From positions 34,404,151 through 34,468,150 of the forward strand of contig NC_134246.1 of the NCBI RefSeq assembly GCF_965152275.1: a stretch of 64,000 nt of DNA, written 5' to 3'. This document shows positions 511-43,265 of the stretch, piece by piece. The notes under the pieces were generated by a model. The model searched no databases and was not told the origin of the DNA. It saw nothing but the letters and a program-made list of their open reading frames with translations. This DNA is from Natator depressus (Eukaryota). A program made the translations under genes and the position numbers. The stretch's first letter is position 1; each line of letters begins with the position of its first letter.

Positions 511-2750
511 AGGAGGCAGTGACCATGAGTTGGTTGAGTTCAGGATCCTGACGCAGGGAAGAAAGGTAAGCAGCAGGATACGGACCCTGGACTTCAGGAA
601 AGCAGACTTCGACTCCCTCAGGGAACAGATGGCCAGGATCCCCTGGGGGACTAACATGAAGGGGAAGGGAGTCCAGGAGAGCTGGCTGTATTTCAAGGAA
701 TCCCTGTTGAGGTTACAGGGACAAACCATCCCGATGAGTCGAAAGAATAGTAAATATGGCAGGCGACCAGCTTGGCTTAATGGTGAAATCCTAGCGGATC
801 TTAAACATAAAAAAGAAGCTTACAAGAAGTGGAAGGTTGGACATATGACCAGGGAAGAGTATAAAAATATTGCTCGGGCATGTAGGAAAGATATCAGGAG
901 GGCCAAATCGCACCTGGAGCTGCAGCTAGCAAGAGATGTCAAGAGTAACAAGAAGGGTTTCTTCAGGTATGTTGGCAACAAGAAGAAAGCCAAGGAAAGT
1001 GTGGGCCCCTTACTGAATGAGGGAGGCAACCTAGTGACAGAGGATGTGGAAAAAGCTAATGTACTCAATGCTTTTTTTGCCTCTGTTTTCACTAACAAGG
1101 TCAGCTCCCAGACTGCTGCGCTGGGCATCACAGAATGGGGAAGAGATGGCCAGCCCTCTGTGGAGATAGAGGTGGTTAGGGACTATTTAGAAAAGCTGGA
1201 CGTGCACAAGTCCATGGGGCCGGACGAGTTGCATCCGAGAGTGCTGAAGGAATTGGCGGCTGTGATTGCAGAGCCCTTGGCCATTATCTTTGAAAACTCG
1301 TGGCGAATGGGGGAAGTCCCGGATGACTGGAAAAAGGCGAATGTAGTGCCAATCTTTAAAAAAGGGAAGAAGGAGGATCCTGGGAACTACAGGCCAGTCA
1401 GCCTCACCTCAGTCCCTGGAAAAATCATGGAGCAGGTCCTCAAAGAATCAATCCTGAAGCACTTACACGAGAGGAAAGTGATCAGGAACAGTCAGCATGG
1501 GTTCACCAAGGGAAGGTCATGCCTGACTAATCTAATCGCATTTTATGATGAGATTACTGGTTCTGTGGATGAAGGGAAAGCAGTGGATGTATTGTTTCTT
1601 GACTTTAGCAAAGCTTTTGACACGGTCTCCCACAGTATTCTTGTCAGCAAGTTAAGGAAGTATGGGCTGGATGAATGCACTATAAGGTGGGTAGAAAGCT
1701 GGCTAGATTGTCGGGCTCAACGGGTAGTGATCAATGGCTCCATGTCTAGTTGGCAGCCGGTGTCAAATGGTGTGCCCCAGGGGTCGGTCCTGGGGCCGGT
1801 TTTGTTCAATATCTTCATAAATGATCTGGAGGATGGTGTGGATTGCACTCTCAGCAAATTTGCGGATGATACTAAACTGGGAGGAGTGGTAGATACGCTG
1901 GAGGGGAGGGATAGGATACAGAAGGACCTAGACAAATTGGAGGATTGGGCCAAAAGAAATCTGATGAGGTTCAATAAGGATAAGTGCAGGGTCCTGCACT
2001 TAGGATGGAAGAATCCAATGCACCGCTACAGACTAGGGACCGAATGGCTAGGCAGCAGTTCAGCAGAAAAGGACCTAGGGGTGACAGTGGACGAGAAGCT
2101 GGATATGAGTCAACAGTGTGCCCTTGTTGCCAAGAAGGCCAATGGCATTTTGGGATGTATAAGTAGGGGCATAGCGAGCAGATCGAGGGACGTGATCGTT
2201 CCCCTCTATTCGACACTGGTGAGGCCTCATCTGGAGTACTGTGTCCAGTTTTGGGCCCCACACTACAAGAAGGATGTGGATAAATTGGAGAGAGTCCAGC
2301 GAAGGGCAACAAAAATGATTAGGGGTCTAGAGCACATGACTTATGAGGAGAGGCTGAGGGAGCTGGGATTGTTTAGTCTGCAGAAGAGAAGAATGAGGGG
2401 GGATTTGATAGCTGCTTTCAACTACCTGAAAGGGGGTTCCAAAGAGGATGGCTCTAGACTGTTCTCAATGGTAGCAGATGACAGAACGAGGAGTAATGGT
2501 CTCAAGTTGCAATGGGGGAGGTTTAGATTGGATATTAGGAAAAACTTTTTCACTAAGAGGGTGGTGAAACACTGGAATGCGTTACCTAGGGAGGTGGTAG
2601 AATCTCCTTCCTTAGAGGTTTTTAAGGTCAGGCTTGACAAAGCCCTGGCTGGGATGATTTAACTGGGAATTGGTCCTGCTTCGAGCAGGGGGTTGGACTA
2701 GATGACCTTCTGGGGTCCCTTCCAACCCTGATATTCTATGATTCTAAGGA
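491..2750 (+). mobile_element. CR1 LINE copy, 5'-truncated. It has one uninterrupted 723-aa ORF2 remnant (end of AP-endonuclease, RT, C-terminal domain) plus a 3' UTR ending in an ATTCTATG microsatellite
   Basis: ORF 491..2662 carries RT motifs ([18 protein letters not shown]). The 3' tail reads ggactagatgacc...ccaaccctgatattctatgattcta, typical of a CR1 3' end. Confidence 0.85.
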
Positions 2751-3215
2751 TGTGGAAAAATTGGAAAGAGTCCAGCGGAGGGCAACAAAAATGATTAGGG
2801 GACTGGAACACATGACTTATGAGGAGAGGCTGAGGGAACTGGGATTGTTTAGTCTGCAGAAGAGAAGAATGAGGGGGGATTTGATAGCTGCTTTCAACTA
2901 CCTGAAAGGGGGTTCCAGAGAGGATGGATCGAGACTGTTCTCAGTGGTAGTGGATGACAGAACGAGGAGTAATGGTCTCAAGTTGCAGTGGGGGAGATTT
3001 AGGTTGGATATTAGGAAAAACTTTTTCACTAGGAGGGTGGTGAAACATTGGAATGTGTTACCTAGGGAGGTGGTGGAATCTCGTTTCTTAGAAGTTTTTA
3101 AGGTCAGGCTTGACAAAGACCTGGCTGGGATGATTTAGTTGGGGATTGGTCCTGCTTTGAGCAGGGGATTGGACTAGATGACCTCCGGAGGTACCTTCCA
3201 ACCCTGATATTCTAT
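2750..3215 (+). mobile_element. Short 5'-truncated CR1 copy inserted exactly at the 3' end of the previous copy
   Basis: ORF 2752..3138 matches the last 128 aa of CR1 ORF2. The same 3' UTR and ATTCTATG tail repeat at 3139-3215. Confidence 0.85.
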
Positions 3216-5939
3216 GACATTGAAAGCAAGAGCTTATCATTGTAACACAGTTTTCAATCCACCAGCCTCCTCCTCAGTACATTCCTTAATTGACAGGCAC
3301 AATAAAAACAAAATCATAAATGTAATCTTATGTGAGGGCTGCGATTTCGCTGTGGGCACCCTCTTCTAGAACTACCATCTCCTCCTCCTCATCATCTTCC
3401 TCTTGACAACCAAACCTTTTGCCATCTTTACTAACTTCAGGGGTCACGTCCAGTAACAGCTGATCAAGAGGCCTCTACCAACTATCTCACAGATCTGAAT
3501 ATCGACGCTGTCTTCCTTCAGCAGAAGAGCCTGGTGGTTTCCATATCTTGATCTAACACCAGCCACCAAAAACAGCTTCTGGCCACATCTTTCCTGGCTA
3601 CTTGTTCTGTGATTTGGCCACCCCAAAAGGGTATAGTGCACCACCTTAAGCTAAATGGGGTCATTCCTTCTTTCCAGAGTAATTTCCTTATCTGTAATAG
3701 GGAGGTTGTCTAGAAAAGAGATTCTATATCCAAAATTTTCTTCATGGGCGGCGCATAACGGAGGCTAGGAGAGGCTAAGCCTCCGCAAACCTCGTGCTGC
3801 TGTGTGGGGGGGGAAGGGGTGTCAGTGGCAGATTCCCACATGGCCTATGGGCCTCGGCCAATTTGGGGCCCCTGGAAAAATCTCCCCCAGCTATTGGGGC
3901 AGGGCTGGAGGAGCTCTTGCTCCCCTCTGCAGAGCTTTTCTGTTTTCAGGGCTGCAGCTGTGGGAGGAGGCAGGGACTTGTGGGGGGAGGCAGAGTGGGG
4001 GTGGGGCCATGGGAGAAGGGGATGAATGTGGGGGCTGGTGTGCTCTCTTCAGGGCAGAAAGGAACAAGACCTGTCACTACAACACACGGACAATCTAGTC
4101 AAACCTTTGACCCGGGTGATTTGTGAGCCATGCACGTCAGTGTGGGCAACTGCTTTTCTGCTGGTGTCTGTGGATTTCTTAGGGGAGGGGGAAGATCAGA
4201 CGAGCCAGATGCAGCATTGCAGGGTGGGGAGCCTGGCGCTCTGTCCCTGCTTCTCCATACTCCTTTTTGCCCACCCCCATTCTTCTCCTGTTCATTCTGC
4301 CCCGGGAGCCTCTGCTCCTTTTCGCCTCCCTTCAGCCCAGGCCTCCCGGGCCCAGCAGCAGAAGCATTAAACAGGAGTTCACCTGCCCTCACTGAAGCTG
4401 AGCAAATACGCAATTTTTCAGTTTGGTGGCTAAGGCAAAAAAAAACAGGAAAACAATCGGTTCATTTCTAACCCACACCGTTGTTTTTTCTCTTCAGTTT
4501 TTCTCACTGAAACAAAGAAACTAATAAAAGAAAGAGGGGGAAAGGGTTCGGGTTGAGCAAAACGTCCTGTCAACATTTCGCCTTGGAAATGTGTTAAAAC
4601 AAAATGTGGAAACGCGCCGTTGTGAAAATGTCGGAACAAATCATTTCAACTCTTGAGCAAGTTTTGCCTCATTTTCTAGTCAGCGGAAACCATTTGCTGG
4701 ATTGGACCCAAATCCGTGAATAGTTTTAATGCATTTTAAACCCGCAGCCCAGCTCAGCAGCGTGGCGCAATCAAGGCAGGGACACTCCTGCTCCCGGCTC
4801 GCAGCCAAATGGACGCACGAGACCCCCGGTGGGAAGAGGCAGATGGGGGTGACGGGCTGCAAACGTCACATCCAAGTAACTAGACCTGGCAGCCTTGATT
4901 TAATGTGTCCCCCAGCGTGTTATGTGAGAACCACAGCACCGCCCCCCCCCCCCGCCAAAACCGCCCACAGTTCCCTATGCCCAACAGTCATTTTAACACA
5001 TGTCACAGGTAGATGGTTAAGAATTTAGGGAATACTGCGGAAACTTGTGTTTCTTGGTGCCAAAGAATAATGTCTTTCAGCATTATAAATCCAAAATGTG
5101 AGTATCTTTAAGCGTTATTAAACCTTAGCGTTATTATCGGGCTGTATAATTATGAACTTTCTTTGTTTTAATTGGTTCACATGTAATAAATAAGGTCGAT
5201 AAAAGAAAAGTAACAGCGTTAAAGCTTAATAGACTACGAAAGTGACGACATCACACTCCAAGCGGGTAACCGTGAGGGAGGGGATTATTTTCCAAACAAC
5301 TGGTGTCGGGTTATAACGTTGAAAATGTCATTTTGTTTCCGTGTAAACACTGTTACTAGCTGTTTTAATAGGTAAGTGAGTGTATGTTACTAATCATTGA
5401 ATCTTTAAGCAGTGAAAAGACGTGTTGGGATGGCTGCAATGTGGTTTAAATCACCAACAATGTGGTGGGTGTGTCAGCCATCCTTAACGCTATAATACTT
5501 GCAGTCGGGAGCACAGTACATAACAATATTCAAATGCCCCATGGCAGCAAGAGGAAAAAGAAAACCCTCAGGAGCTGAGTATTGTAAATGAAAGGCTGAG
5601 AAGGAAAAGGACCAAGCAAAACAGCAGGGATCCTTCCTGAAATATCTTCTCTTTAATCCAAATAAAGATGGAAGCAGTTCACAGCATCCAAATGAAGGAA
5701 TTTTCCTTGGAGAGGAGGTTAGCTCACATCCGCATGGAAGCAGTTTGGAACATCAAGATGAAGGTATATTACTTCGAGATGAGGGTAGCTCACATCCACA
5801 AAAAAGCAGTTTGGAAACTCAAGATGATGGAAACTAGATGAAGGCAGCTCACAGCATCAGGCTGATATGGAAGTGGAGAAAATTTATTCACCTTCAGAGC
5901 AAATGTATAAATTGAAGTAAATGAAGTAGAAGGAAGAAA

Positions 5940-6860
5940 GGATGAGGAAGTTACAAACAAGTTACAGTATGGGGATCCAGCTTCATGGCCCAGATGTGAT
6001 GACAGTGTGTGGCAAATTCTTGTGGAACATGGAACCGAACAAGTTCATGAATTTCCCTTCCCTAAGGATGGAAATAAAAGAAAATTCTCTGCTCAGCATT
6101 ACAAGAGGAAACTCATTAATGGGGAAGAAATTCATCGAAACTGGTTCCAATATTCAGTGTCGAAGGACTCTGTGTTTTGCTTTTACTGCAAATTGTTTAG
6201 AAATCAAGGAATTGGTACATCACTTACTGACAATGGTTCGAAGGACTGGAAAAACATATCTTCAATTCTCTCTTCACATGAAAGAAGTACAGAACATTTG
6301 GAATGTTTTCAAAATTGGAAAGAACTTGAATTACAATTGAAAAAAGGAAAAATTATTGATGAAGAAAATTTACGTGTGATCAAGGAAAAAGAAGAACATT
6401 GGCAACAAATACTAGAGCATCTGATTGCTTTAGTCAGAGTTCTTGGTGGGCAAACTTTAGCATTCCGCGGCCATGGTAGAAATGAAAAATTATACACTTC
6501 TGGGTAATGGAAACTTTTAAAAATTTGTTGAATACCTCGCTTTGTTTGATCCAGGCATGAAGGAGCATCTACGTAAAATAACTGATCATGAAACACAGGT
6601 TCATTACTTAGGAAAAAATATGCGGAATGAACTGATTCAAATCCCAGCAAATGCCATTAAAAAAAATTGTAGACGCGGCCCATTCTGCAAAATGCTTTTC
6701 AATAACACTGGACTGTACACCAGATGTGAATCGTGTTGAACAAATCACGATGATCATTCATTTTGTGAATATGGAAAAGTCTGCAGATGAAGATAATGCT
6801 GAAGTGCTCATAAAGGAACATTTTTTGGGTTTCGTACCACTGAAAGAGACGACTTGAGCA
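5940..6860 (+). mobile_element. hAT-derived (ZMYM1-like, TTF-type zinc finger / DUF4371) transposase fragment, decayed
   Basis: ORF 6007..6507 contains CFYCKLF, a TTF-type zinc-finger motif. Frame-shifted continuations lie at 6542..6857. ~60-bp tandem repeats sit just upstream at 5640-5900. Confidence 0.5.
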
Positions 6861-21470: not shown

Positions 21471-21550
21471 TGCATCCTAAAGCCCATTTGCAAAAGGCCA
21501 ATCCGTGGGCTCATCCAGGATTTGAACCCAGGGCCTCTCACACCCGAAGC
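21471..21550 (-). pseudogene. tRNA-Pro(CGG)-derived pseudogene or SINE head
   Basis: The reverse complement reads GGCAGGGCTTGTTGGTCTAGGGGTATGATTCTTGCTTCGGGTGTGAGAGGCCCTGGGTTCAAATCCTGGATGAGCCCA. Compared with vertebrate tRNA-Pro-CGG as I recall it, six CG positions read TG, and one of them breaks the T-stem. Confidence 0.55.
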
Positions 21551-21619
21551 AAGAATCATACCCCTAGACCAACAAGCCCTGCCTAAAAAGGAGGTGCAGG
21601 TGCCTCACTAAGCTAGAAT

Positions 21620-30500: not shown

Positions 30501-32728
30501 GCCCATAAGGAACTGAAGAGACCAGCTGAAGCCCTCTTGTGAGGACAGCTTGTCCCTCATCTGCTACCGCAGTGGGCTGGTGCCTTCCCCTGACTTGGCT
30601 AGCACTCTCCCAGAGGGGCCGTGGGGACCAATCGAGGCGGGCAGTTCCCCAGCGCGATGGGCTTGGCTGCATCGTGGCAGCCCCATCCAAGCACCCAAGC
30701 ACCCGGCGTTGGCTGATGCTTCATCATGCCAAGCTTTCCTCAGCGCCCGCCAGCCCTCTCCCCATGACTCTCTCTCTTCCGCCTACTGGGCCAAGGTAGT
30801 TGTCCCCAGGACTGGGTGCCGAGCCAGGATGCAACCCCAGGGGATAGCCACCCCCCAGTCCCACCCCAGGGACAGGCCCGGCCAGAACAGGGCTGGCCAA
30901 GGGGCCTGGGTCAGCCCTGGTTTGGTTCCCATCCAGGACTCCTTTAGTAAGGCAAGAGAAAATCCGTGAGGGGTTCAGGACCAGATCTGCCGGGCTCCGC
31001 AGGGCAGGATTCGAGGGCCCAGCAGCTACATGACGTGAGTCCACTGGGCAAAGAGCACCAAAAGCACCTGGGGTTTCCAGTCAGGCCCTTCTGGCGTAGG
31101 ACGTGGGGTGCTCCGCTGAGCTGGAGAGAGCTGGGTCCACCCACTCAGTGGCAGGAGCCGCTGGGTCCATGCGCCGAGAGAGGATGTGCACGGAGTGGGT
31201 CAGAGGAGATGAGAGGGGTTCAGATACTCTCAGAAGGGGCTGGCTGGGGTCCTGTAATCACAGACACGGCAGGCTGGAAGGGACCTCACACGGTATCTAG
31301 TCCAGCCCCTGCACTGAGGCAGGGCCAAGTGACCCTAGACCAGCCCTGATGGTGGTTTGTCCAACCCTGTCTGCCACGCGACGCTCCCATTAATCCAGCC
31401 ATGACTCCTGCCACGACTCCTGCCCAGACTGGGAGTGGCCCAAGGAGTTCAGATACTCAGAGGGGAGGGCCAAAGGGGTTCACATGGGGATGGATGGACA
31501 GGTAACTTGGGGGACAGAGATGGGGGACGTCATGTGATGGCTGATTGGCGATAGGGCCTTCCCCCCGCCAGCCCGGATTCTGTAGGACCCCACTCAGAGG
31601 GTTTCACCCATCAGTAGCCAAGGGGGCAGGCGGCCCAGCACTGTGGCAACTGGCACTAACCGGCCAAAGACTCAACCCCTCCCTCCAGGATACAGTGGTG
31701 GAGGGTCACTGTGGAGTGGAGGAAAGACAGGAAGGGATGCAGAAATAGACCACACCCCTCACAAGCTAAGCCCTGCCCCTACAAGACAACACATCAGCCC
31801 GCCCCAAAATGCTTTCAAAGAAACTGAGCCATGAGACCCCCTTGGTTCTGTCATTGCTGTATTGTTAGCAAGGCGCAGCCGTGGAGTGGTCCTATGATAA
31901 AATGCAGCAGGGCAGGGAGGGGCAGAGCCGCCTGGTGTGGAAGGGAGCCAAACCCCCAGTTCACTGGGGGCTCCCCATTTCTGGGGCAGCTCTCAATCAT
32001 CCCAGCTGCAAACTGAGCATTGGTAACAAAACACATCACTGCAGAAGAGCCAGAATGGTCCAACATGAGAATGTGAAGAGGGGGCCGGCTCCCGCCTGCA
32101 CCAAACATGGCCTGACGCCTGGACAGGGTTGGGCAGCCATCCCCGCCTCCTCGGCGCTGAGCCGAGGGTTGGTCCCTTCCCAGCTGTGAGAAAGGGGGTT
32201 CGGATAACACCCCCGAGACGTTCCCCCGCCTGTGAGCAGGCGGCACAGGCTCAGGCGAACCGCCCAGGAGATTTAAGAGTGGCGTTCGCCATATCTCAGA
32301 CTACGCGGCCGAATGTGGGGTCTTTTGTGGGGTCAGTGGCCAGGTGACACTCCCCAGTAGCACCAGCAATGGAGGCAGGTGCTTTTGGGTGGAGCATCCT
32401 GGGCTGCATCCCTGGAGGGGGGCATTAGTGGGGGTTGGAGCTGAGACATGGGCTTGGGCAGGCGTCCCATGGTCTGCGGGACTCCAGCAGCCACGCTGTG
32501 AGCACCGCAGGACACCAGGCTCAGACGCCCCCCCATGGGGGAAGAGATGGGGTCAGGGGCTGCCTGAGGGGGGCTCTGGGCTGGGATAAGCGTACATGGG
32601 AGCCGGGAGCAGCGGCCACAAAAATCAAGAGTGGGGAGCAGGCTGGCAGAGCAAGCCGTGGGGGAAGGGGCAGGGCAGCAGTTTGCAGTGGAGGCAGGTG
32701 CCAGGGGAGGGGCCCCTCCCCCAGCCGG

Positions 32729-32943
32729 CTACACCAGGCCATTGCCCTTCATGCGCTCCACCAGCATGGAGACCAGGCGCTCCAACTTGAGAGCAGCCTG
32801 GCGCCCGGCCTCCAGCACCTCGGCATGGTTGGCCTTCTCCCGGGTCCCGTACTCCAGCACTGCCTTGTTGGTGATCAGAGAGAAGCCGAAGACACGCAGG
32901 CCGCAGTGCCGGGCCACAAGCACCTCGGGCACCGTGCTCATCC
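32729..32943 (-). CDS. PNP: PNP exon 6 (last coding exon, ...[27 protein letters not shown]...KGNGLV*)
   Basis: ORF 32729..32941 matches the purine nucleoside phosphorylase C-terminus. The acceptor cccccag|GGATG on the minus strand is phase 1. Confidence 0.85.
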
Positions 32944-33039
32944 CTGGGGGCAGAGCCTGTGTCAGTCTGCAGGGGGCGACAGAGAGCCGGCGATGCCCAG
33001 CCCCCGCCTGCAGCTGCTTGCCCTTCCTGTTCCCTCCTA

Positions 33040-33425
33040 AGCTCTGTTTGCCTCTTTCCTTCCCTCTCCTCCCTCCTATCCCTTCCTTCGCTACCTCCCT
33101 CCTCCTTCCCTCCCTCCCCGTTCCCTCCTCTGCCCCGTCCTTCCTCCCTCCCTTCTTTCCCTCCCTCCCTGTTCCCTATGCTGCCCCATTCCTTCCCATC
33201 CCTCCCTCCCCGTTCCTTCCTCTGCCCCATTCCCTTCCTTCCCCCCCTCCCTGTTCCCTCCTCTGCCCTGTTCCTTCCCTCCCTCCCTCCCTTTCCATTC
33301 CCTCCTCCTCTTCCCCCCTGTTCCCTCCTCTGCCCTGTTCCTTCCTTCTCTTCCCCCCTGTTCCCTCCTCTGCCCCGTTCCTTCCTTCCTGTCCCTCCCC
33401 ATTCCCTCCTCCCCTCCACCGCCCT
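33040..33425. repeat. Pyrimidine-rich minisatellite (ccctccctccccgttccctcctctgccccgttccttcc, ~38-bp unit) filling almost all of PNP intron 5
   Basis: Seen in sequence. It gives spurious P/S-rich and R/G/E-rich ORFs on both strands. Confidence 0.85.
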
Positions 33426-33437
33426 CCCTCGGCTCAC

Positions 33438-33628
33438 CTACGGCGTCGGCGCCCAGCTGCTGCAGGAAGCGGCACTCAGCGATGGTCTCGTAGTTGGGCC
33501 CCCCCACGGTGCAGTAGACACCCTCGTGCAGGCTGGGGCCGTAGCCCAGCTCCCTGCCCACTGCCAGCGCCAGGCCCCGTAACTGCTCGTCGTAGGAGTC
33601 CGACATGGCCGGGAAGCGGGGCCCAAAC
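33438..33628 (-). CDS. PNP: PNP exon 5 (191 nt: RFGPRFPAMSDSYDEQLRG...YETIAECRFLQQLGADAV)
   Basis: Minus-strand acceptor ctgcatag|GTTTGGG and donor GCCGTAG|gtgagccg. I recall exon 5 of human PNP as 191 nt. Confidence 0.85.
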
Positions 33629-34010
33629 CTATGCAGGCAGGGGAGGGGAGAGAGCTCGTGGGGGGGAAGGAGACAGAGGCGCACCCCCATCCCTTCCCAG
33701 AGCAGGGAATGGCCCTGGGGTCCCTTGTGCTGGGCTCTGGCCAGGACTCAGGGTCCTGTCCCCGCCCAGGGGCGCCCACCCATTTCCCGGGCTTTACACT
33801 GCTGCCACTACTGGCCATGGCAAGGGAGGAGCTGTAGGAAAATACTGGGGGGTAGGGGGCAGCAGGGAGGGAGGGCACTGGGTGCCCAGGGCAACAGGAG
33901 GGGGCCGGGTGCCTGGCAGGGCAGGGCAGCGGGGGGGCAGAGCAGCACAGGGGGCAGGGACAGGAGGTGCAGGGTGCCCGGCGGGGGGGGGGGGGGGGGG
34001 CAGCTCCTAC

Positions 34011-34186
34011 CTCTCATCACAGGGGCCGCTCAGCGGGTTGGTGCCTGCCAGGCCGGGCATGTTGATGTGGTCCCGGATCACCATGATGTCACCAACCTGA
34101 TACCCGCGGTTGAGGCCACCAGCCGCGTTGGTGACGATCAGGGTCCCTGCGCCCAGCAGGCGGAAGATCCGCACCGGGAACGTCAC
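34011..34186 (-). CDS. PNP: PNP exon 4 (176 nt: [59 protein letters not shown])
   Basis: Acceptor ctacag|GTGACG, donor GAGAG|gtaggag. ORF 34007..34213. Confidence 0.85.
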
Positions 34187-34199
34187 CTGTAGGGGGGGA

Positions 34200-34520
34200 G
34201 GAGGGGCATCCAATGCCAGACGCTACCCAGCCCTGGGTACCCCAATACAGCTCTGCTGGTGCCCCTCACCCCCAACCCGCAGCCCCCCTCCTCTCCCCTT
34301 TCCCCATGCCCCTCATTCCTGAATCGCAGCCCCCGTGTCCCTCACCCCCAACCCGCAGCCCCCCTTCCCTCCCCCCATGCCCCTCACACCCAACCCGCAG
34401 CTCCCCTCACTCCTGAACCACAGCCCCCCCATGTCCCTCACTCCTGAACTGCAGCTCCCTTTCCCTTCCCCCATGCCCCTCACTTCTGAACCGCAGCCCC
34501 CCGTGTCCCTCAGGGCCGGC
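34200..34520. repeat. ~58-bp minisatellite (cccctcactcctgaaccgcagcccccgtgtccctcacccccaacccgcagcccccctcc) in PNP intron 3. A second array of the same family lies at 39150-39420
   Basis: Seen in sequence. Confidence 0.8.
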
Positions 34521-35389
34521 CTTAAGGAAAATGGCACCCTAGGTGAATTTATATTTTGGTGCCCCATGAGTTTAACGATGTAGTACTTTCACTACAGGGT
34601 GTTGGGGGATGGGGCTGTAGTGAAAACTCTATGGTTTTTTTGCGGATAACTTAGAAATTAGCTGTTGATTTCACTGTACACACACAAATATTTCCATCAG
34701 TAATAAATAATTTATTTACAAATAGGGAAAGCAAGAAAAATGCTGCTTGAAAACTTGTTAGAGTCAAAATTCAGTGATCTAAACTTCTGAATTGGGCTTG
34801 TTACAAATGGACTAGTGAATGAATAGTTAAATCAACAAATCCTTTCTGGTTTTCGGATAGTTATTTTGTATATTTTGACATGTGATACTGACACTTAGTG
34901 GGTTTTGCTGTTTTGTTGTAGTCATGTTGGCACCTGGATATGAGAGCCATAAGGTGGGTGAGGTAATATCTTTAATTGGACTGACTTCAGTTGGTGAAAG
35001 AGACAAGATTTCAAACCCCACAGAGCTCTTCTCCAGGTCTGTGAAGTTCAAAAGGGCTTCTCTCTTTCACCAACCAAAGTTGGTCCAAACAAAGATATTA
35101 CCTCAGCCACCTTGTCTCTCTGTGTTTTAACAGCTTTAAAGCCTGAACTCTTTGAATCTCAACTTCTACTGTTATTAAAAAGTTAACTGACCTGCCCCCC
35201 ATAATTTCCCACAACTGTGAAAATTACAAACTATAAAAAGACAAAAAAGCTTAAAAATAAAGTTTATATTACACATCAACGTTATAAAAAAAATAAAAAG
35301 TGCATTCTACCAAGCCTATTTATAAGCCAGAGCAGCAGAGTTGAAGTGTGTGTGTGTGGGCGGGGGGGATTGGGAAACGCTTATGCCCA

Positions 35390-37215
35390 AATACATTTGT
35401 TAGTCTGTCAGGTGCCACAAGGACTAACAAATTTATTTGCGCATAAGCTTTCGTGGGCTATAACCCACTTCCTCAGATGCATGGAGTGAAAAATACAGTA
35501 GGCAGGTATAAATATACAGCACATGAAAAGATGGGAGTTGCCTTACCAAATGCGGGGTGAGTGCTAACGAGGCCAATTCAATTAGGGTGGATGTGGCCCA
35601 TTCCCAACAGTTGACAAGAAGGTGTGAGTATCAACAGAGGGAAAATTATTTTTTGTAGTGATCCAGCCACTCCCAGTCTACAAGCTGTCAGGAACAGTAT
35701 CCCCGATAATGTCATGGCAAACCTGGTGGCTGAGCTTTGTGACTTTGTCCTCACCCAGAACCATTTCAGATTCGGGGATGATTTATACCTTCAAGTCATC
35801 GGCACTGCTGTGGGTACCCACATGGCCCCACAGTATGCCAACATTTTTATGGCTGACTTAGAACAACGCTTCCTCAGCTCTCGTCCCCTAGCACCCCTAC
35901 TCTATTTGCACTACATTGATGACATCTTCATCATATGGACCCACAGGAAGGAGGCCCTTGAGGAATTCCACCAGGATTTCAACAATTTCCACCCCACCAT
36001 CAACCTCAGCCTGGACCAGTCCACACAATAGATCCACTTTCTGGACACTACAGTACAAATAAACAATGGTCACATAAACACCACCCTATACCGGAAACCT
36101 ACTGACTGCTGTACTTACCTACATGCCTCCAGCTTTCATCCAAACCACATCACATGATCCATTGTCTACAACCAAACCCTAAGATACAACCGCATTTGCT
36201 CCAATCCCTCAGACAGAGACAAACACCTACAGGATCTCTATCAAGCGTTCTTAAAACTACAATACCCACCTGGGGAAGTGCGGAAACAGATTGACAGAGT
36301 CAGAAGGGTCACCTACTACAGGACAGGCCCAATAAAGAAAGTAACAGAACACCACTAGACATCACCTACAGCCCGCAACTAAAACCTCTCCAGTGCATCA
36401 TCAAGGATCTACAGCCTATCCTGAAGGACGATCCCTCACTCTCACAGACCTTGGTAGACAGGCCAGTCCTCGCTTACAGACAGCCCCCCAAATTGAAGCA
36501 AATACTCACCAGCAACTACACAGGACACAACAGAAACACTAACCCAGGAACCCATCCGTGCAACAAACCCCGTTGCCAACTCTGTTCGCATATCTATTCA
36601 AGGGACCATCATAGGACCTAACCACATCAGCCACACTATCAGGGGCTCATTCACCTGCACATCTACTAATGTGATATATGCCATCATGTGCCAGCAATGC
36701 CCCTCTGTCGTGTACATTGGCCAGATCGGACAGACTCTACACAAAAGAATAAATGGACAGAAATCAGACATCAAGAACTGTAACATTCAAAACCCAGTAG
36801 GAGAGCACTTCAATCTCCCTGGACACTTAATAATAGACTTAAAAGTAGCCATTCTTCAACAAAAAAACTTCCAAAACAGACTTCAATGAGAAACTGCAGA
36901 ACTGGAATTAATTTGCAAACTTGACACCATCAAATTAGGCCTAAATAAAGACTGAGAGTGGCTGGGTCACTACAAAAAATAATTTTCCCTCTGTTGATAC
37001 TCACCCCTTCTTGTCAACTGTTGGGAATGAGCGACGTCCACCTTGATTGCATTGGTCTCGTTAGCACTGACCCCCCACACTTGGTAAGGTAACTCCCATC
37101 TTTTCATATGCTGTATGTTTATACCTGCTTAGTGTATTTTCACTCCATGCATCTGATGAAGTGGGTTTTAGCCCACAAAAGCTTATGCCCAAATAAATTT
37201 GTTAGTCTCTAAGGT
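35390..37215 (+). mobile_element. Penelope-like retroelement (PLE), 5'-truncated: RT (YIDD) + GIY-YIG endonuclease, bounded by ~270-bp inverted terminal repeats
   Basis: ORF 35624..36031 reads ...GTAVGTHMAPQYANIFMADLE...YLHYIDDIFIIW. ORF 36671..36889 reads CPSVVYIGQIGQTLHKRINGQKSD. 35395-35665 is the reverse complement of 36935-37215 (~88% identical). A third partial terminal repeat is at 37590-37720. Confidence 0.7.
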
Positions 37216-39149
37216 GCCACAAGGATGCTCGTCGTTTTTGCTGATACAGACTAAGGGTATGTCTACACTACCCATGTTACGCAGCAGTGCCCCCACGCTG
37301 TGCCATGGGCAGTACAGACACGCTTTATTGCGGGAGTGCGATGGTAGCTTTATCACCAGGAGTGCGGCTCCTGGTGATAAAGCGTTGTCTATACTGGCGC
37401 TTTTCAGTGCTAAAACTTTTCACACCCCTGAATGTTTTTTCACACCCCTGAATGACAAAAGTTTTAGCACTGAAAGTGGCAGTGCAGACACAGCCTTACA
37501 CGCTACCCCTCTGAAACCTATCCCTACTAGAGTTCTCTCTCAGCTTAAGGGCCTGATTGAAATTGTAAATCACAACCACCACACAGGTTTCAGAGTGGTA
37601 GCCGTGTTAGTCTGTATCAGCAAAAACAACAAAAACAACGAGGAGTCCTTGTGACACCTTAGAGACTAACAAATTTATTTGGGCTTAAGCTTTTGTGGGC
37701 TATCACACATTATCCTCAGTTCCATCCTCACACTAACAGCAGGAACCCGTGACTTCCAGAGGATGAATTAGGTTTGCAGGATATGTGATTAAGATGGGAG
37801 TAAAGAAAGGAGTTTCCTTATTCTTAATCTTGATGCAGCATAGAAATGTACACAACATTGTGCCCAACAGTTTAGATCAGGCTCTGCCCCAAGGAATTTC
37901 AGTATACTGTTAAGTACAACTTGTAGTGGAAACAGAAACTGTTGAAAAAAGAAAGCCTGAGGGTATGGGTAAGCAATCAGGGATTGAATGAAAGGTAAAT
38001 GGGTTTCAAGGAGATCACAGCAGGCAGGCAGACACCACCCACTGTGACTCCCATACCCACTCCTGTTCAGGTTGGGGGTGGGGGAGGAGGCACATGGGGG
38101 AGTTGATCTCAGTGTCACACTCATTTATCTCCTATGCACCCACCTGCCTGACTCTGGGGAGGCAGCAGCCCCCCTGGGACCAAGAAAGTAAAGCCTCTGA
38201 ACCAGGGGAGCAGGGAGGACAGGACCTTCAGCTGCTGAGGGGGGGGGGGAGAGGGCACAATTTAAAGGTCCCTCTCCATCAGCTGGAGTGTCATACAGCG
38301 CCCTCCCCAGGCAGCCCAGCCCTCCCCCTTGCCCTCAGGTCCTCTGTGGGAAAGCAGCTGTTCCCTCCTCCCTCCCATACCTAACCTCTCCCTGCAGAGC
38401 TGAAGCAGCAGCCCTTCCTCCCTACTGCTCCCAGGTGCCTCCAGCAAGCAGGGGAGGGAGGGGGAGAGATCAGCAGACAAATCCTGGCAGAAAACTGGGG
38501 AGGAGGGGTAACATGACCCAGCGCATGCCCCCCCATGTGTCAGCTCTCTGCAGGGAAGGGATGGGATGGGAGCAGGCAGGCTGCAGCAGCGCCCCTCGTG
38601 GTGCTCACTGTGTGGAGCTAAATATGCGCTCCAGTCCTGCGGGCTGTGCCAGGGGAAAGAGCAAGCCCTTACCTGGACAAGTGGGACTCTTAGTGGGGAA
38701 GGGGAAGAGAAGGGGGGTGGACCCTGACCTGCTCTACACTAAAGCACAACCAAAGAGCTGGGCTGCTGCAAGCCCCCAGTCAGCCGGCACACACAGAGAC
38801 AAGCTGCACACACACTCCTCCTTCAATACCATCCCCCCACCCCCGACATCAGGTCAGGACCCAGCACAGCCTGCCCCATGGTGTCTACAGGGGGCCCCCT
38901 GTGCCAGGAGAGTGGGGGGACCCCACCGGGCACCCACCCCTGCTCCTGCTCCTCTGGGTGAGTGAGTGCCTCAAGCTGCAGCTTGGATGCGTGTGTTTTT
39001 CTCTCCCCCCCCGGGCCAACCCTGGCTCGGCTGGCAGTAGGGCTTTCCCTCCTTAAGCCCAGCTGGCTGGCCACAGGTAAAGTCACAAGGGACCTATCAA
39101 ATGCGCCCCCATCAGCACCGTCGCCTTGGGCAGCTGCCCTTATCGCCCT

Positions 39150-39420
39150 GGTCAAAGGCCGGCCCTCACTCCCGAACCACAGCTCCCCTCCCCTCCTCCC
39201 ATGCCCTGCAATCCCGAACCACAGCCCCCCTCCCGTCCCCCCATGCCCCTCACTCCTGAACCGCAGCCCCCGTGTCCCTCACTGCCGACTCGCAGCTCCC
39301 CTCCCACCATGCCCCTCATTCCCAAATCGCAAACCCCTCCCCTCCCCCCTGACTCCCAAACCACAGACCCCCCATTCCCCTGTGCCCCTCAGTACCGACC
39401 CACAGCCCCCTGCTAGCCCA
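39150..39420. repeat. 58-bp minisatellite, second array of the PNP intron 3 family
   Basis: Same unit as 34200-34520. Confidence 0.8.
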
Positions 39421-39466
39421 GCCCTGGGCTCCCCCCACACCACCTTCCCCACAAGGAGCCACTCAC

Positions 39467-39570
39467 CTTCCACAGTGGGTACCCCTCATACATGTGGAAC
39501 CGGCCCTTCATCACCACGCAGCTTACCCCCGCCAGCATCCCGAACACCAGCTTCCCAGCATGGCCTGCCA
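39467..39570 (-). CDS. PNP: PNP exon 3 (104 nt: [35 protein letters not shown])
   Basis: Acceptor tctctggcag|TGGCAGG, donor TGGAAG|gtgagtgg. ORF 39413..39598. Confidence 0.85.
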
Positions 39571-39811
39571 CTGCCAGAGACGGGAAAGGGTTAAACACCG
39601 GCCCCAGGGCATTTACACAGTGTAGGTCCTGCCTCGCCTCTGCACCCCCTGCCCCTCATGCTCTGCACCCCCGCCCCCACCACTCGCCCTCTGCACCCCC
39701 CTGTCCCTCGCCCCATATTGCCCGTTATACAGTATAGCGGCCCTTTCCCTTCCCGCATCCTCTTCTGCCCCTAGTGCCCATTGTACAATATAGCTGCCCC
39801 TCGCTGGGTAC

Positions 39812-39981
39812 CTGTGCTCTGGGGAAAGTTGGGAATGTCCGTGTAGTTAAAAACCACTGGATCCTTCACCAGGTCAGCCAGGCCCCCAAGGCCAGAGCCA
39901 CAGATAATGGCCAAGCTAGGCCGGTGCTTGGTGTGATCCAGCAGCCATTCGGCTGTTTCCTTGTGCTGCTCATACGTGTAC
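39812..39981 (-). CDS. PNP: PNP exon 2 (170 nt: YTYEQHKETAEWLLDHTKHRPSLAIICGSGLGGLADLVKDPVVFNYTDIPNFPQST)
   Basis: Acceptor ccagcag|GTACACG, donor ACAG|gtaccc. ORF 39771..40079. Confidence 0.85.
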
Positions 39982-40019
39982 CTGCTGGGGGAGAGAGACG
40001 CAAGAGAGTTAAAACGAGT

Positions 40020-40182
40020 CATGTGTTTACACAGCAGGGCCGATCCCCTCCAGCAGGGGGTGCAGGGGGACACACACACTCACTCACACATATATACACA
40101 CACAGCAGGGTTGATCACCTCCAACAGGGGTGCAGCCACACACACAGAGAGTAGGGCTGAATCCCTCCAGCAAGGGGCGCAA

Positions 40183-40225
<43 letters not shown>

Positions 40226-40400
40226 AGGGCCGATCCCCTCCAGCAGGGGTGCAGGGACACACACACACACCAGGGCAGATCCCCTCCAGCAGGGGTGCAG
40301 GGACACACACATACTCACTCACACATATATACACTCACAACAGGGCCGATCCCCTCCAGCAGGGGGCGCAAGGACACAGGGACACACACACACACTCATC
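40020..40400. repeat. ~60-bp minisatellite containing (CA)n tracts (cacacacagcagggccgatcccctccagcaggggtgcagggacacacaca) in PNP intron 1
   Basis: Seen in sequence. Its longest (CA) run, ~25 units, is at 40186-40235. Confidence 0.85.
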
Positions 40401-41745
40401 CAGCTCCCAGCCCATCTCAGCGGCCTGGCATGGGCTGACACTGGGCGGGAGGGCGGTGCAGAGCTGCAGGGGTACAGGGGGCTGGAGCCGGGCTGGGCCA
40501 GAGGGAGAATGCCAGGGTGGGAGCAGTGGCCACGGTAGGGCAGGACGGAATTACAGAGCAAGGGGAAGAGACGGGGCCAGAGGATGGGCGAGGCGCCAAC
40601 CCCAGGGAGGCCAGGGCGAGGGCAGGGACCTCTGAGCTGCCAGGCTCCTGAGCTGGTCCTGCAGGGAGCTGCCTCCTCTTTGTCCCCAGGAGAAGGGCCC
40701 CAGCCTGGCAGGACACGGCACTTTACCAGCACCATCCACCCTGCGTGGGCTTGCGGGGAAATCTCCCCCCACCCCAGCTTTGCCGGTGCCCCTCACTCCA
40801 AACCCGCAGCCCCCACTAGTCCGGGAGATAGCCTGGGCCTGATCTCCTGTCACTGGAGGGTAGAGAAGGGTGCTGGGGGCAGGCAGCCTGCAGAGTCAGG
40901 CAGGCTGGCCTGGGATTGCTCCCTGGCCTGTTGATCGTTAACTAAGGGGTATGTGGGGAGCAGGATCAGCCCAGGCCACTGAAGGGGAAGTGGCTGCCCC
41001 AGGGGCCCATTACTCCGCAGGACCAGGCGCTAGCAGGGCACCACCTGGGCGGTGGTTTTCCAGAAAAGAGAGATGTCTCTGCCCCGATCCCCCCTCAGCC
41101 ATTATTCTGCAGGGCCCTGCGCTGGCAGGTTGCCATCTGGGCGGTGGTTTCCCGGAATAGAGAGACGTCTCTGCCCCGCTTCCTGCCGGTCCCCCTCCTA
41201 CTCCCCCGCAATTGAGTCACACACTGGGTTTTGGAGGGAAATGTGCCAAGCTGGCTGTTTGGGTCAGGCGGCTTTGACTCATCCGGGTGCTGGGGGAGCC
41301 TGGAGGCACCATAAACATGAGAATCTGGTCTTAGCAAGGGGTGGAATAGCAGGGCGCCGTGGGTTGGGACTGAGGGGCACCAGTAAACTCTCCTTGCAGC
41401 TGCCAGGGGCTGGATCAGAGCCAGCGCCCCCTGGACTGCAACAACCCCATGCCCCATTCCCCCCCCCCCCCCCCGCCAGCATGGCATTAAGGGGTCAGGG
41501 AGAGTCTCACATTCCCTGCAGGAGCAGACGGCCCCTCACCCATTACGAGTGGATCAGAACTAGCCCTACTGCACCAGGCTGGGGTCACTGTGCAGGGCTC
41601 CGCACAGCTAGGGGCCCTGGGCTGCAGGGGGAGTACAGCAGGGGGCGCTGGGCAACGGGGGGATATAGCAGGGGGCACAACAAGGGTGCTGGGCTAAGGG
41701 GGCGCAGCCAGGGGAGTACAGCGGGGGCGCTGGGCAGTCAGGGGG

Positions 41746-42012
41746 CACAGCAGGGGGCGCTCTCCGCAGGCAGACCATTTGCCCTAGAGCAGTGGTTCTC
41801 AAACTTTTTTACTGGTGACCCCCTTTCCCATAGGAACCCTCTGAGTGCGACCCCCCTTATGAATTAAAAACACCTTTCTATGTATTTCACACCATTATAA
41901 ATGCAGGAGGCAAAGCAGGGTTTGGGGTGGAGGTTGACAGCTGGCGACCACCGATATAATCACCTCACGACCCCCTCAGGGGTCCCGACCACCAGTTTGA
42001 GAACCCCTGCAC
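41746..42012. mobile_element. MITE (~266 bp) with ~23-bp terminal inverted repeats
   Basis: The left end ctagagcagtggttctcaaact is the reverse complement of the right end agtttgagaacccctgcactagag. The element lies in PNP intron 1. Confidence 0.6.
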
Positions 42013-42290
42013 TAGAGGATCACCTCAGCCCTCCCTGGGGTCCTGGCCCCAGTGCCAGCCGCTGTCAGTGCCAGGGCTAATTAAGGCTCCCCCAGACTGC
42101 CCGGCACACCCCACAGCACCTCGACACCCTCTCAGGGCATCAGTGACAGAGATCCCAGGCGACCTGCCCCCCCCCCCCGCTGTAACCACTAGACAGCACT
42201 CCCCTCCCATCACTGGGGATGGGACCCAGGAGTCCTAGTTCCAGCCCTCCCGGAGAGGACCCAGGAGTCCGCCCCTCCCCCCGCGCACAC

Positions 42291-42320
42291 CTGCGCTCCT
42301 CAGACGCTGCCGGCTCCATG
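42291..42320 (-). CDS. PNP: PNP exon 1, coding part (ATG GAG CCG GCA GCG TCT GAG GAG CGC AG|gtgtgcg), predicted
   Basis: The ATG on the minus strand is 110 bp from the start of a GC-rich region. The phase-2 donor CGCAG|GTGTGCG joins the phase-matched exon 2 acceptor to give MEPAASEERRYTYEQHK... Human PNP, from memory, also has a tiny first coding exon. Confidence 0.5.
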
Positions 42321-42479
42321 GCGGGTCCGGGCGATGCTGAGCCGGGCGCGGCCGGGCCCGGGTGACTCCGCCTGCTTCGCCCCGCCCCCAGCCCAGCCCC
42401 ACCAGCCGCAGCCCCGCTCTCTGTCCCGTTCCGGCTCCGGCAGAGCCCCCCACCCCGCCCGCCAGCCAGCCAGCAGCCG

Positions 42480-43265
42480 GGGAGACCCCCCCACCCAGTC
42501 CCCCAGCACCGGGGAGAGACCCCCATTTTAGCCCCCCATTCCCAGCGCCCAGGGGAGATCCCCTATTCTAGCCCCTCAGCGCCAGAGACACCACCCTTTC
42601 CACCCTCCAGCATCAGGGGAGACCCCCCATACTGCCCCACCATTCCCAGCCCCTCAGTGCCCAGAGGAGACCCCCCAATCCAGCCCCCCAGCATCGGGGG
42701 AGACCCCATAATTCTAGCCCCTCCCCATTCCCAGCATCCCGACGCCAGAGACACCCCGCAATCCAACCCCACTACTCCCAGCTGGCCGGCAGCAGACACC
42801 CCCCCAATCCAGCCCCCTACTCCCAGCCCCCCGGCGCCAGAGACACCCCCCTTTCCAGACCCCGTACTCCTATCCCCCCAGCACCAGAGATATCTCCATT
42901 CCAGCCCCCCAGCACCAGAGACACCCCCAATCCAGCCCCCCATTCCTAGCGCCCAGCACCAGAGACACCCCCAATCCAGCCCCCCATTCCTAGCCCCCAG
43001 CACCAGAGACACCCCCCAATCCAGGCCCCCTACCCCCAGTGCCAGAGACACCCCCCAATCCAGCCCCACTATTCCTAGCCCCCCAGCACCAGAGACACCC
43101 CCCAATCCAGCCCCCCAGTGCCAGAGACTCCCCCCATCCAGCCCCCCTACTCCCAGCCCCCCAGCGCCAGAGACACACCCCTTTCCTGCCCCCCTATTCC
43201 CAGCCCCCCAGCGCCAGAGACACCCCCTAATCCAGCCCCCCTATTCCCAGCCCCCCGGAGTCGAG
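42480..43265. repeat. ~50-bp minisatellite, ~15 units (ccagccccccagcaccagagacaccccccaatccagccccccattcc), between the divergent PNP and PIP4P1 promoters
   Basis: Seen in sequence. It is the source of the P-rich ORFs 42657..43271 and 42563..43105. Confidence 0.85.

Follow-up and report, generated by a model that had tools for sequence, protein, structure and literature searches.

The PNP gene of the turtle Natator depressus holds an intronic repeat between positions 35375 and 37725 of a 64,000-nucleotide stretch of contig NC_134246.1 (positions 34,404,151 to 34,468,150 of the forward strand, assembly GCF_965152275.1), and the whole of this stretch is referred to as the window. The repeat raises the question of whether it is a Penelope-like element (PLE) whose terminal repeats carry hammerhead ribozymes (HHRs), as a first-pass annotation made from the letters alone had proposed. 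The PLE assignment is supported by homologues that combine RVT_1 and GIY-YIG domains, by an inverted architecture, and by the fit of the repeat motifs to the minimal HHR (min-HHR). The locus is very probably a dead, 5'-truncated, canonical endonuclease-bearing (EN+) PLE with a Neptune/Nematis-type linker that lies antisense in PNP intron 3 of a cheloniid sea turtle. The clade type is the one suggested by the linker motif only.

The protein-coding remnant was examined by direct reading and by an open reading frame (ORF) listing of 34800-38400. The two peptides that had been put forward as the PLE signature were both found, HYIDDIFI in ORF 35624-36031 and VVYIGQIGQTLHKRINGQKSD in ORF 36671-36889. 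The landmarks within the ORF remnant are as follows.

~35909-35920, plus strand: reverse transcriptase (RT) motif YIDD
~36560-36590, plus strand: linker CNKPRCQLC (CX4CxxC)
~36670-36790, plus strand: GIY-YIG core, with the 3' untranslated region (UTR) after it

Mending two frameshifts gave a repaired ORF of 424 aa that matches 210 proteins at E<=1e-10. The best matches are turtle proteins with 75-83% identity over the full query and E values down to 1e-238, and they are annotated as 'uncharacterized' or RT-domain proteins of Chrysemys, Caretta, Lepidochelys, Natator, and Gopherus. Remoter matches come from alligator, lizards, frog, shark, and invertebrates. Over its entire length (100%), the repaired ORF shares 83% identity with the homologue P0001, in which Pfam detects RVT_1 (43.7 bits) and GIY-YIG (25.7 bits, cutoff 22.6) in a single ORF. 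The homologue P0019 also has both domains in a single ORF, with scores of 45.1 bits for RVT_1 and 23.9 bits for GIY-YIG (cutoff 22.6). The combination of RT and GIY-YIG in one ORF defines the canonical EN+ PLEs, and all of these share the CCHH feature of two Cys inside GIY...YIG (PMC8557442). The CCHH feature is present in the window (VIYAIMCQQCPSVVYIGQ...H...GEHF), including the two Cys (VIYAIMCQQC...YIG), and the RINGH motif of the endonuclease carries an H>Q change. The CX4CxxC linker CNKPRCQLC is common to the window, P0019, and P0008, a full-length Gopherus relative of 715 aa. Craig et al. 2021 (PMC8557442) give a CX2-5CxxC linker as characteristic of the Neptune and Nematis clades.

The same comparison defines what has been lost. 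In a tblastn search with P0008, the window encodes only residues 259-699; the N-terminal 258 residues and the 5' UTR are absent, and the region of the DKG motif (EADKGG in P0008) is deleted. Five in-frame stops lie at 36029, 36155, 36887, 36953, and 36980, and two frameshifts lie near 36310 and 36600. No transposon function is left because the N-terminal half of the protein and the 5' UTR are gone, the remaining frame is broken by these stops and frameshifts, and the tail is interrupted by an insertion. The window copy is thus predicted to be inert as a transposon. A PDB sequence search with the full-length relative returned weak generic RT matches only and no PLE structure.

A repeat search, tail alignments, and blastn to a Gopherus PLE unit were used to delimit the parts of the locus, which include pseudo-long terminal repeats (pLTRs) and an insertion resembling a miniature inverted-repeat transposable element (MITE).

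35349-35374, no strand: (GT)n microsatellite and then a G-run, directly adjoining the element (direct reading)
35375-35423, plus strand: 49-nt sense PLE-tail fragment from the GAAA box to ...CACAAGGA, a direct repeat of 37177-37225 (92% identity) with a local hairpin
35422-35679, minus strand: inverted copy of the element's 3' end (ORF end, 3' UTR, HHR), the upstream inverted pLTR (inverted repeats; blastn to the Gopherus unit)
35680-37254, plus strand: sense 5'-truncated PLE body, its ORF remnant equivalent to aa 259-699 of the 715-aa family member (blastn, tblastn)
36949-37254, plus strand: sense 3' repeat (pLTR region) up to the MITE insertion point (inverted-repeat partner; tail alignment to Gopherus, Chrysemys, and Emydura)
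37255-37495, no strand: MITE-like palindromic insertion of 241 bp within the PLE tail (tail alignment; internal inverted repeats)
37496-37521, plus strand: resumption and 3' end of the sense PLE, ...CACGCTACCCCTCTGAAAC, aligned to the Gopherus 3' terminus ...CACGGCTACCCTCTGATA, which adjoins the Gopherus target-site duplication (TSD)
37584-37725, minus strand: separate antisense fragment corresponding to the final ~140 nt of a PLE and facing the sense copy tail-to-tail (blastn; tail alignment)

The inverted arms, 35422-35679 and 36949-37207, span 258 bp in three contiguous blocks with 90-94% complementarity. The repeat search also identified a further antisense tail copy at 37646-37709 and a 24-nt inverted pair, 37231-37254 and 37607-37630, that encloses 352 nt; no tandem array was found at the locus. 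By blastn, window 35679-37254 corresponds to positions 1537-3091 of the 3106-position Gopherus unit (76% identity), and 37725-37584 on the minus strand corresponds to positions 2984-3106, the last ~125-140 nt. This third repeat is 81.5% identical to 37146-37254, and 62 bp of unrelated spacer separate it from the end of the sense PLE (~37521). On the left, the 49-nt tail fragment and the adjoining inverted copy form a snap-back junction, and the fragment may represent either a PLE 'tail' or an older PLE fragment used as a target. PLEs with the CX2-5CxxC linker are reported to prefer microsatellite targets (PMC8557442).

The insertion at 37255-37495 is foreign to the element because the PLE tail, ACAGACTAA...TTACACGCTACCCCTCTGAAAC, runs unbroken in other copies. 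It has imperfect terminal inverted repeats (TIRs) of ~18 bp, GGGTATGTCTACACTACC and GGCAGTGCAGACACAGCC, and is flanked by TAA (37252-37254) and TTA (37496-37498). The TWA duplication, taken by itself, suggests a PIF/Harbinger-like MITE. No other copy of it was found in the window or in the loci compared, and weak Rfam look-alike matches to miRNA and snoRNA families over the insertion merely reflect its hairpin. These boundaries modify the first-pass annotation, whose inverted pseudo-LTRs correspond to the two arms. The extent it gave (35390-37720) falls slightly short on the left, where the element reaches 35375. Its ~350-bp insertion at 37240-37590 was too long and included the resumed PLE tail. 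The third repeat that it placed at 37590-37720 exists, with bounds of 37584-37725 and as a separate antisense 3'-end fragment.

An intact PLE copy at a Gopherus flavomarginatus locus (L001) provided the reference for this layout. It is bounded by a 13-bp TSD, TAGTTGTTAATAA, at 2039-2051 and 6346-6358. An antisense 5'-truncated copy extends from 2052 to ~3240, starting 35 nt short of the true 3' end, and is followed by a sense partial pLTR, the ORF (4001-6148), and a 3' pLTR that ends ...CAGACTAACACGGCTACCCTCTGATA at 6345. The Gopherus locus therefore combines an upstream inverted copy with direct pLTRs, and it carries three identical HHRs. The published PLE layout consists of 5' truncation, partial tandems that form pLTRs, an adjacent inverted 5'-truncated copy, a 30-40-bp tail, and an HHR in each repeat. 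The architecture supports a PLE because the window layout matches both the published one and the intact Gopherus element. The direct pLTR pair is not preserved in the window copy, which keeps the inverted one only. As to the tail, the Gopherus inverted copy lacks the last 35 nt found at the 3' end, and the window has the 49-nt opposite-strand fragment at 35375-35423, which may or may not have the same cause. According to Frangieh et al. 2024 (PMC11167929), the tail is due to a start of reverse transcription inside the RNA 3' end.

Hammerhead motifs lie in all three repeats of the locus.

35439-35483, minus strand (the PNP pre-mRNA strand): min-HHR copy 1, GCAU CUGAGGA A GUGGGU-UAUA-GCCCAC GAAA GC UU/AUGC, all core bases intact
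37146-37190, plus strand: min-HHR copy 2, GCAU CUGAUGA A GUGGGU-UUUA-GCCCAC AAAA GC UU/AUGC, G12>A
~37679-37723, minus strand: degenerate third HHR, within 37584-37725

The min-HHR of metazoan PLEs is a type I hammerhead with a helix I of 4-5 bp, CUGANGA, and one unpaired nucleotide (Cervera & de la Peña 2014, PMC4209133). The motif continues with a long helix II, which G10.1-C11.1 closes, and then with GAAA, the palindromic pair 15.2/16.2, UH, and the return strand of helix I; it has no helix III, so that two copies must pair to form one (PMC4209133). Copies 1 and 2 match this description feature by feature apart from G12 of copy 2; each is 45 nt long with a helix II of 6 bp. The catalytic core (C3-U4-G5-A6-N7-G8-A9, G12-A13-A14, A15.1-U16.1, and H17) is complete in copy 1, whereas copy 2 departs from it at G12. 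G12 is the general base in established hammerhead chemistry. The sense copy with G12>A is predicted to be catalytically dead. The bulged A, the G...C closing pair, and the GC before UH are shared by the two window copies and by 11 of the 12 distinct sequences from related loci. The A15.1-G-C-U16.1 tetranucleotide is self-complementary, as the dimer model requires.

Several details of the first-pass motif description required adjustment. The motifs that it quoted at 35442-35485 and 37146-37190 are present, and its statement that one copy keeps GAAA on the minus strand is borne out at 35439-35483. CTGATGA was ascribed to both repeats but is the reading of the right copy; the left copy reads CTGAGGA, and both fit CUGANGA. 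The stem described as 5 bp is the 6-bp helix II (GUGGGU/GCCCAC, one U-G pair). The 'AAA-type junction' is really the GAAA box, followed by GC and then by UU, the predicted cleavage site. The remark that PLE repeats are known to encode minimal hammerheads agrees with the literature (PMC4209133). Taken as a whole, the first-pass reading of the locus was essentially right.

Descriptor searches, a covariance model, covariation, and folding were used to evaluate the motifs. A strict IUPAC min-HHR pattern matches once in the 64 kb, at copy 1, against 0.01 expected, and a fuller descriptor requiring both helices gives 0.01 matches per shuffled window. The descriptor found copy 1, and copy 2 was found by a relaxed descriptor only. 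In Gopherus (three copies), Alligator, Pelodiscus, Eublepharis, Emydura, and an ENA eukaryotic contig (three copies), the descriptor matches lie on the downstream side of the PLE ORF; in Heptranchias the match is elsewhere in the locus, on the minus strand at 622. The covariance model R1, built from nine related motif sequences, scores copy 1 at 65.3 bits and copy 2 at 65.2 bits. R1 also recovers motifs outside its training set, namely an inverted pair flanking the ORF in Chrysemys (52.6 bits each) and, with 34.4 bits, a copy in Heptranchias at 6175-6216 that is downstream of the ORF. The third window copy was not recovered by R1 at E<=1.

Pairing is maintained while the helices change. In an alignment of 12 distinct sequences from nine related loci, 87.7% of cells are paired, and both sides change in 9 of the 11 pairs. 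Helix I occurs as GCAU/AUGC, UGAU/AUCA, UUGC/GCAA, and AGC/GCU, and helix II as GUGGG/CCCAC, GAGAA/UUCUC, GGGUU/AACCC, and GUGAG/CUCAC. The covariation score is 0.628 compared to 0.313 in shuffles, none of 500 shuffles reaches 0.628, and sliding the registers by 1-3 columns leaves only 26-46% paired. Minimum free energy folds of the single sequences give helices I and II for copy 1 (z = -2.27) and copy 2 (z = -2.22), and for the third copy the fold has no advantage over shuffles (z = 0.11). RNAcofold dimer folding returned trivial domain-swapped duplexes only and gave no information on the 4-bp AGCU helix III. The tail hairpins were considered as the extended helix III of a conventional type-I HHR, and this was rejected, as no helix I partner follows them. 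They are junctions between oppositely oriented PLE tails, one of which is split by the MITE.

The host gene was placed by mapping human PNP onto the window. The coding exons obtained in this way, all on the minus strand, are listed below.

39980-39813, minus strand: PNP coding exon
39586-39461, minus strand: PNP coding exon
~34204-34010, minus strand: PNP coding exon
33630-33439, minus strand: PNP coding exon
~32953-32759, minus strand: PNP coding exon

Joined together, the exons match Natator depressus PNP with 100% identity. The element lies antisense to PNP in the 5.3-kb intron between the second and third mapped exons, which is intron 3, the number first assigned to it, if a short first exon exists as in human. 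The same insertion is present in a Natator locus (L010) that has 99.18% identity to window 31729-43209. The corresponding intron of Carettochelys insculpta (L011, 6753-6878) is only ~124 bp and has no PLE. The insertion is lineage-specific, without deep conservation, because it is absent from Carettochelys. Nearly the whole of the sea-turtle intron (~5.3 kb, between 34010 and 39586) appears to consist of lineage-specific repeat insertions. The insertion event is old because the arms, identical at insertion, now diverge by 6-10%.

The points that weigh against the PLE and ribozyme assignments are best judged together with the rival explanations that draw on them. The CUGANGA...GAAA motif could be a chance look-alike in retroelement 3' UTR repeats, without ribozyme ancestry. 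With E<=10 as the limit, the Rfam hammerhead models (RF00163, RF00008, RF02275-7) match neither a 4-kb segment nor the 121 nt round copy 1, and the whole window has no hammerhead match at the Rfam gathering threshold. The conserved core is short, and the pair counts above are inflated, as pairing was a requirement of the descriptor by which most loci were picked, and the alignment was fitted to R1. Metazoan min-HHRs have low activity in vitro (PMC4209133), ribozyme activity is dispensable for the in-vitro insertion of an Anolis PLE (PMC11167929), and PLEs with an N-terminal endonuclease proliferate without HHRs. The lack of an Rfam match had been named beforehand as a result that would speak against a hammerhead, and none was obtained. 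It is uninformative because the same models also miss the intact Gopherus motif (251 nt), used as the positive control; they expect a helix III. The descriptor enrichment and the R1 matches outside the training set are independent of the ascertainment bias. The descriptor is expected ~0.01 times per 64 kb, yet 7 of 9 related PLE loci (L001-L009) have a match to it, which usually follows the ORF downstream. Both helices vary in sequence while their pairing stays, and the bulged A, G10.1-C11.1, and the palindromic GC are all present although they lie outside the original 2014 descriptor. These data make a chance resemblance very unlikely. Another rival is an element other than a PLE, such as a DIRS-like element, a fragment of a long interspersed nuclear element or long terminal repeat element, or a TIR DNA transposon with a captured RT fragment. 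Inverted repeats at both ends would fit such an origin. The window fragment alone reaches only 26.5 bits for Pfam RVT_1, under the 29.6 cutoff, its own endonuclease segment has no Pfam GIY-YIG match, so that the domain is seen only via the intact homologues, and the TSD search at the two candidate right boundaries gave no duplication above 6 nt. The ORF is, however, 83% identical to proteins with RVT_1 and, C-terminally, a GIY-YIG domain, and there is no tyrosine recombinase, integrase, apurinic (AP) nuclease, or restriction-like (REL) nuclease. The arms copy the ORF end and the 3' UTR rather than dedicated TIRs, and direct pLTRs together with an inverted 5' copy are seen in the intact relative. 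A non-PLE origin is extremely improbable.

A further idea is that the host has put the insertion to use, with 35439-35483 as an intronic self-cleaving or regulatory PNP RNA or the ~260-bp arms as a double-stranded RNA (dsRNA) element of the pre-mRNA. Copy 1 is on the transcribed strand of PNP intron 3 and keeps all 15 core positions while its sister copy has lost G12, and conserved intronic hammerheads are known in amniotes. Our own calculation, however, shows that all 15 core bases survive with a probability near 0.5 at ~4-5% change per copy, and the core was probably kept in the inverted copy by chance. Helix III is absent, the sole partner on the same strand (~37679-37723) is degenerate, the insertion is missing in Carettochelys and hence not deeply conserved, and the remainder of the element decays neutrally. 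The likelihood of exaptation is practically negligible. We consider it highly improbable, likewise, that copy 1 cleaves PNP pre-mRNA at a low level or that the ~260-bp arms form dsRNA that affects PNP splicing or editing. Low-level cleavage might, for instance, use host chaperones or pairing in trans with transcripts of other PLE copies, and if true either effect would be a lineage-specific regulatory exaptation in sea turtles.

A decayed canonical EN+ PLE remains the preferred reading, and the literature offers a mechanism by which such a locus would arise. The single ORF would encode one protein in which reverse transcriptase and GIY-YIG nuclease are fused. Once the nuclease had cut the target, the RT would copy the element RNA from the cut by target-primed reverse transcription. 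Copying that begins slightly inside the RNA 3' end would give rise to the tail, and the outcome would typically be 5'-truncated copies, partial tandems that form pLTRs, and, upstream, the 3' end copied in inverted orientation. The HHR is thought to cut multimeric or read-through transcripts as a dimer through the palindromic A-G-C-U round the cleavage site.

Two related loci have arrangements of their own. In Chrysemys picta bellii (L002), an open PLE ORF of 586 aa is flanked by an inverted identical HHR pair, 2907-2951 on the minus strand and 5950-5994 on the plus strand. Their core reads CCGAAGA, and this U4>C change is expected to inactivate a hammerhead. An open ORF is therefore no guarantee of an intact ribozyme. 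A eukaryotic ENA assembly, ERZ22157276 (L009), contains two head-to-head PLE ORFs, 2251-3999 on the minus strand and 4001-5791 on the plus strand, within a span of 1617-6093. Its HHR motifs lie at 1617-1661 (plus), 1949-1993 (minus), and 6049-6093 (plus), a clear inverted PLE arrangement in a different host.

A second small element was observed ~250 bp upstream of the PLE. It covers ~180 bp (34943-35121) and consists of two 65-nt inverted arms, 83% complementary and 49 nt apart. The motif at its centre, 34999-35043 on the minus strand, reads AGAC-CUGgAGA-A-GAGCUC(UGUG)GGGUUU-GAAA-UC-UU/GUCU and scores 18.5 bits with R1 (E = 0.008); it folds no better than shuffles. It is a decayed min-HHR of a different sequence family, and 34943-35121 is probably a further repeat of PLE-tail-derived or retrozyme-like kind. 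The window and the unrelated loci contain no second copy, and the sole other match is the orthologous site in L010.

Other observations concern the wider window and the turtle gene models. GC-rich stretches at both ends of intron 3, ~34110-34590 and ~38960-39600, contain long spurious ORFs with similar proline-rich peptides (...SLLNRSPRVPH...PQPAAPLP...), which suggests that they share a minisatellite or repeat family near the exon boundaries. The sole match in the window at the Rfam gathering threshold is a tRNA-like sequence at 21507-21578 on the minus strand (37 bits, full model length), which could be a tRNA gene or the tRNA-derived head of a short interspersed nuclear element. Turtle RefSeq 'isoforms' of TANGO2, MVB12B, KIAA0930, DNAJB13, and DNAJC15 match the PLE ORF with ~80% identity over most of their length, and more such 'isoforms' (~80% identity) belong to endothelin-3, CTR1, WDR86, and ZNF577-like. 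This indicates that many turtle gene models are contaminated by intronic PLE fragments.

The locus is a known kind of feature, as both the element class and the ribozyme have already been published. It has little significance beyond annotation, being one decayed copy of a repeat family abundant in turtle genomes. The more general point is that the Rfam hammerhead models miss PLE hammerheads that lack helix III, even intact ones, and a negative cmscan is not proof of absence.

Canonical EN+ PLEs of the Neptune/Nematis type are reportedly a subject of Arkhipova's work of 2006. Turtle Penelope families are catalogued in Repbase, for example Penelope-2_CPB (cited in PMC9004415), and min-HHR motifs in turtle and snakes were already mentioned in 2014 (PMC4209133). 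The window element is closest to the canonical EN+ PLEs with a CX2-5CxxC linker (PMC8557442), with which it shares the order of RT and C-terminal GIY-YIG, the core Cys pair, the CX4CxxC linker, 5' truncation, an upstream copy of the 3' end in inverted orientation, HHRs in each of the repeats, and a microsatellite at the insertion site. It differs in being a pseudogene without the N-terminal half of the ORF, with an inverted pLTR only and no recognisable TSD. Its hammerheads resemble the min-HHRs of metazoan PLEs (PMC4209133) in a helix I of 4-5 bp, a 6-bp helix II, the lack of helix III, and their site in PLE repeats; unlike those, the sense copy has G12>A and the third copy is degenerate. In the Poseidon PLE of Anolis carolinensis (PAc, PMC11167929), the ORF starts inside HHR stem II, whereas here ~80-200 nt separate the ORF end from the HHR downstream. 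PAc is a member of the Penelope/Poseidon clade, and the window family has the extra linker motif characteristic of Neptune and Nematis. Metazoan non-LTR retrozymes (Cervera & de la Peña 2020, PMC7229834; Li et al. 2026 bioRxiv) also have type-I hammerheads, and these are related to PLE pLTR sequences. A retrozyme consists of short tandem units that do not code for protein, whereas the window locus has RT and endonuclease coding sequence and no tandem array, and these differences rule out a non-LTR retrozyme.

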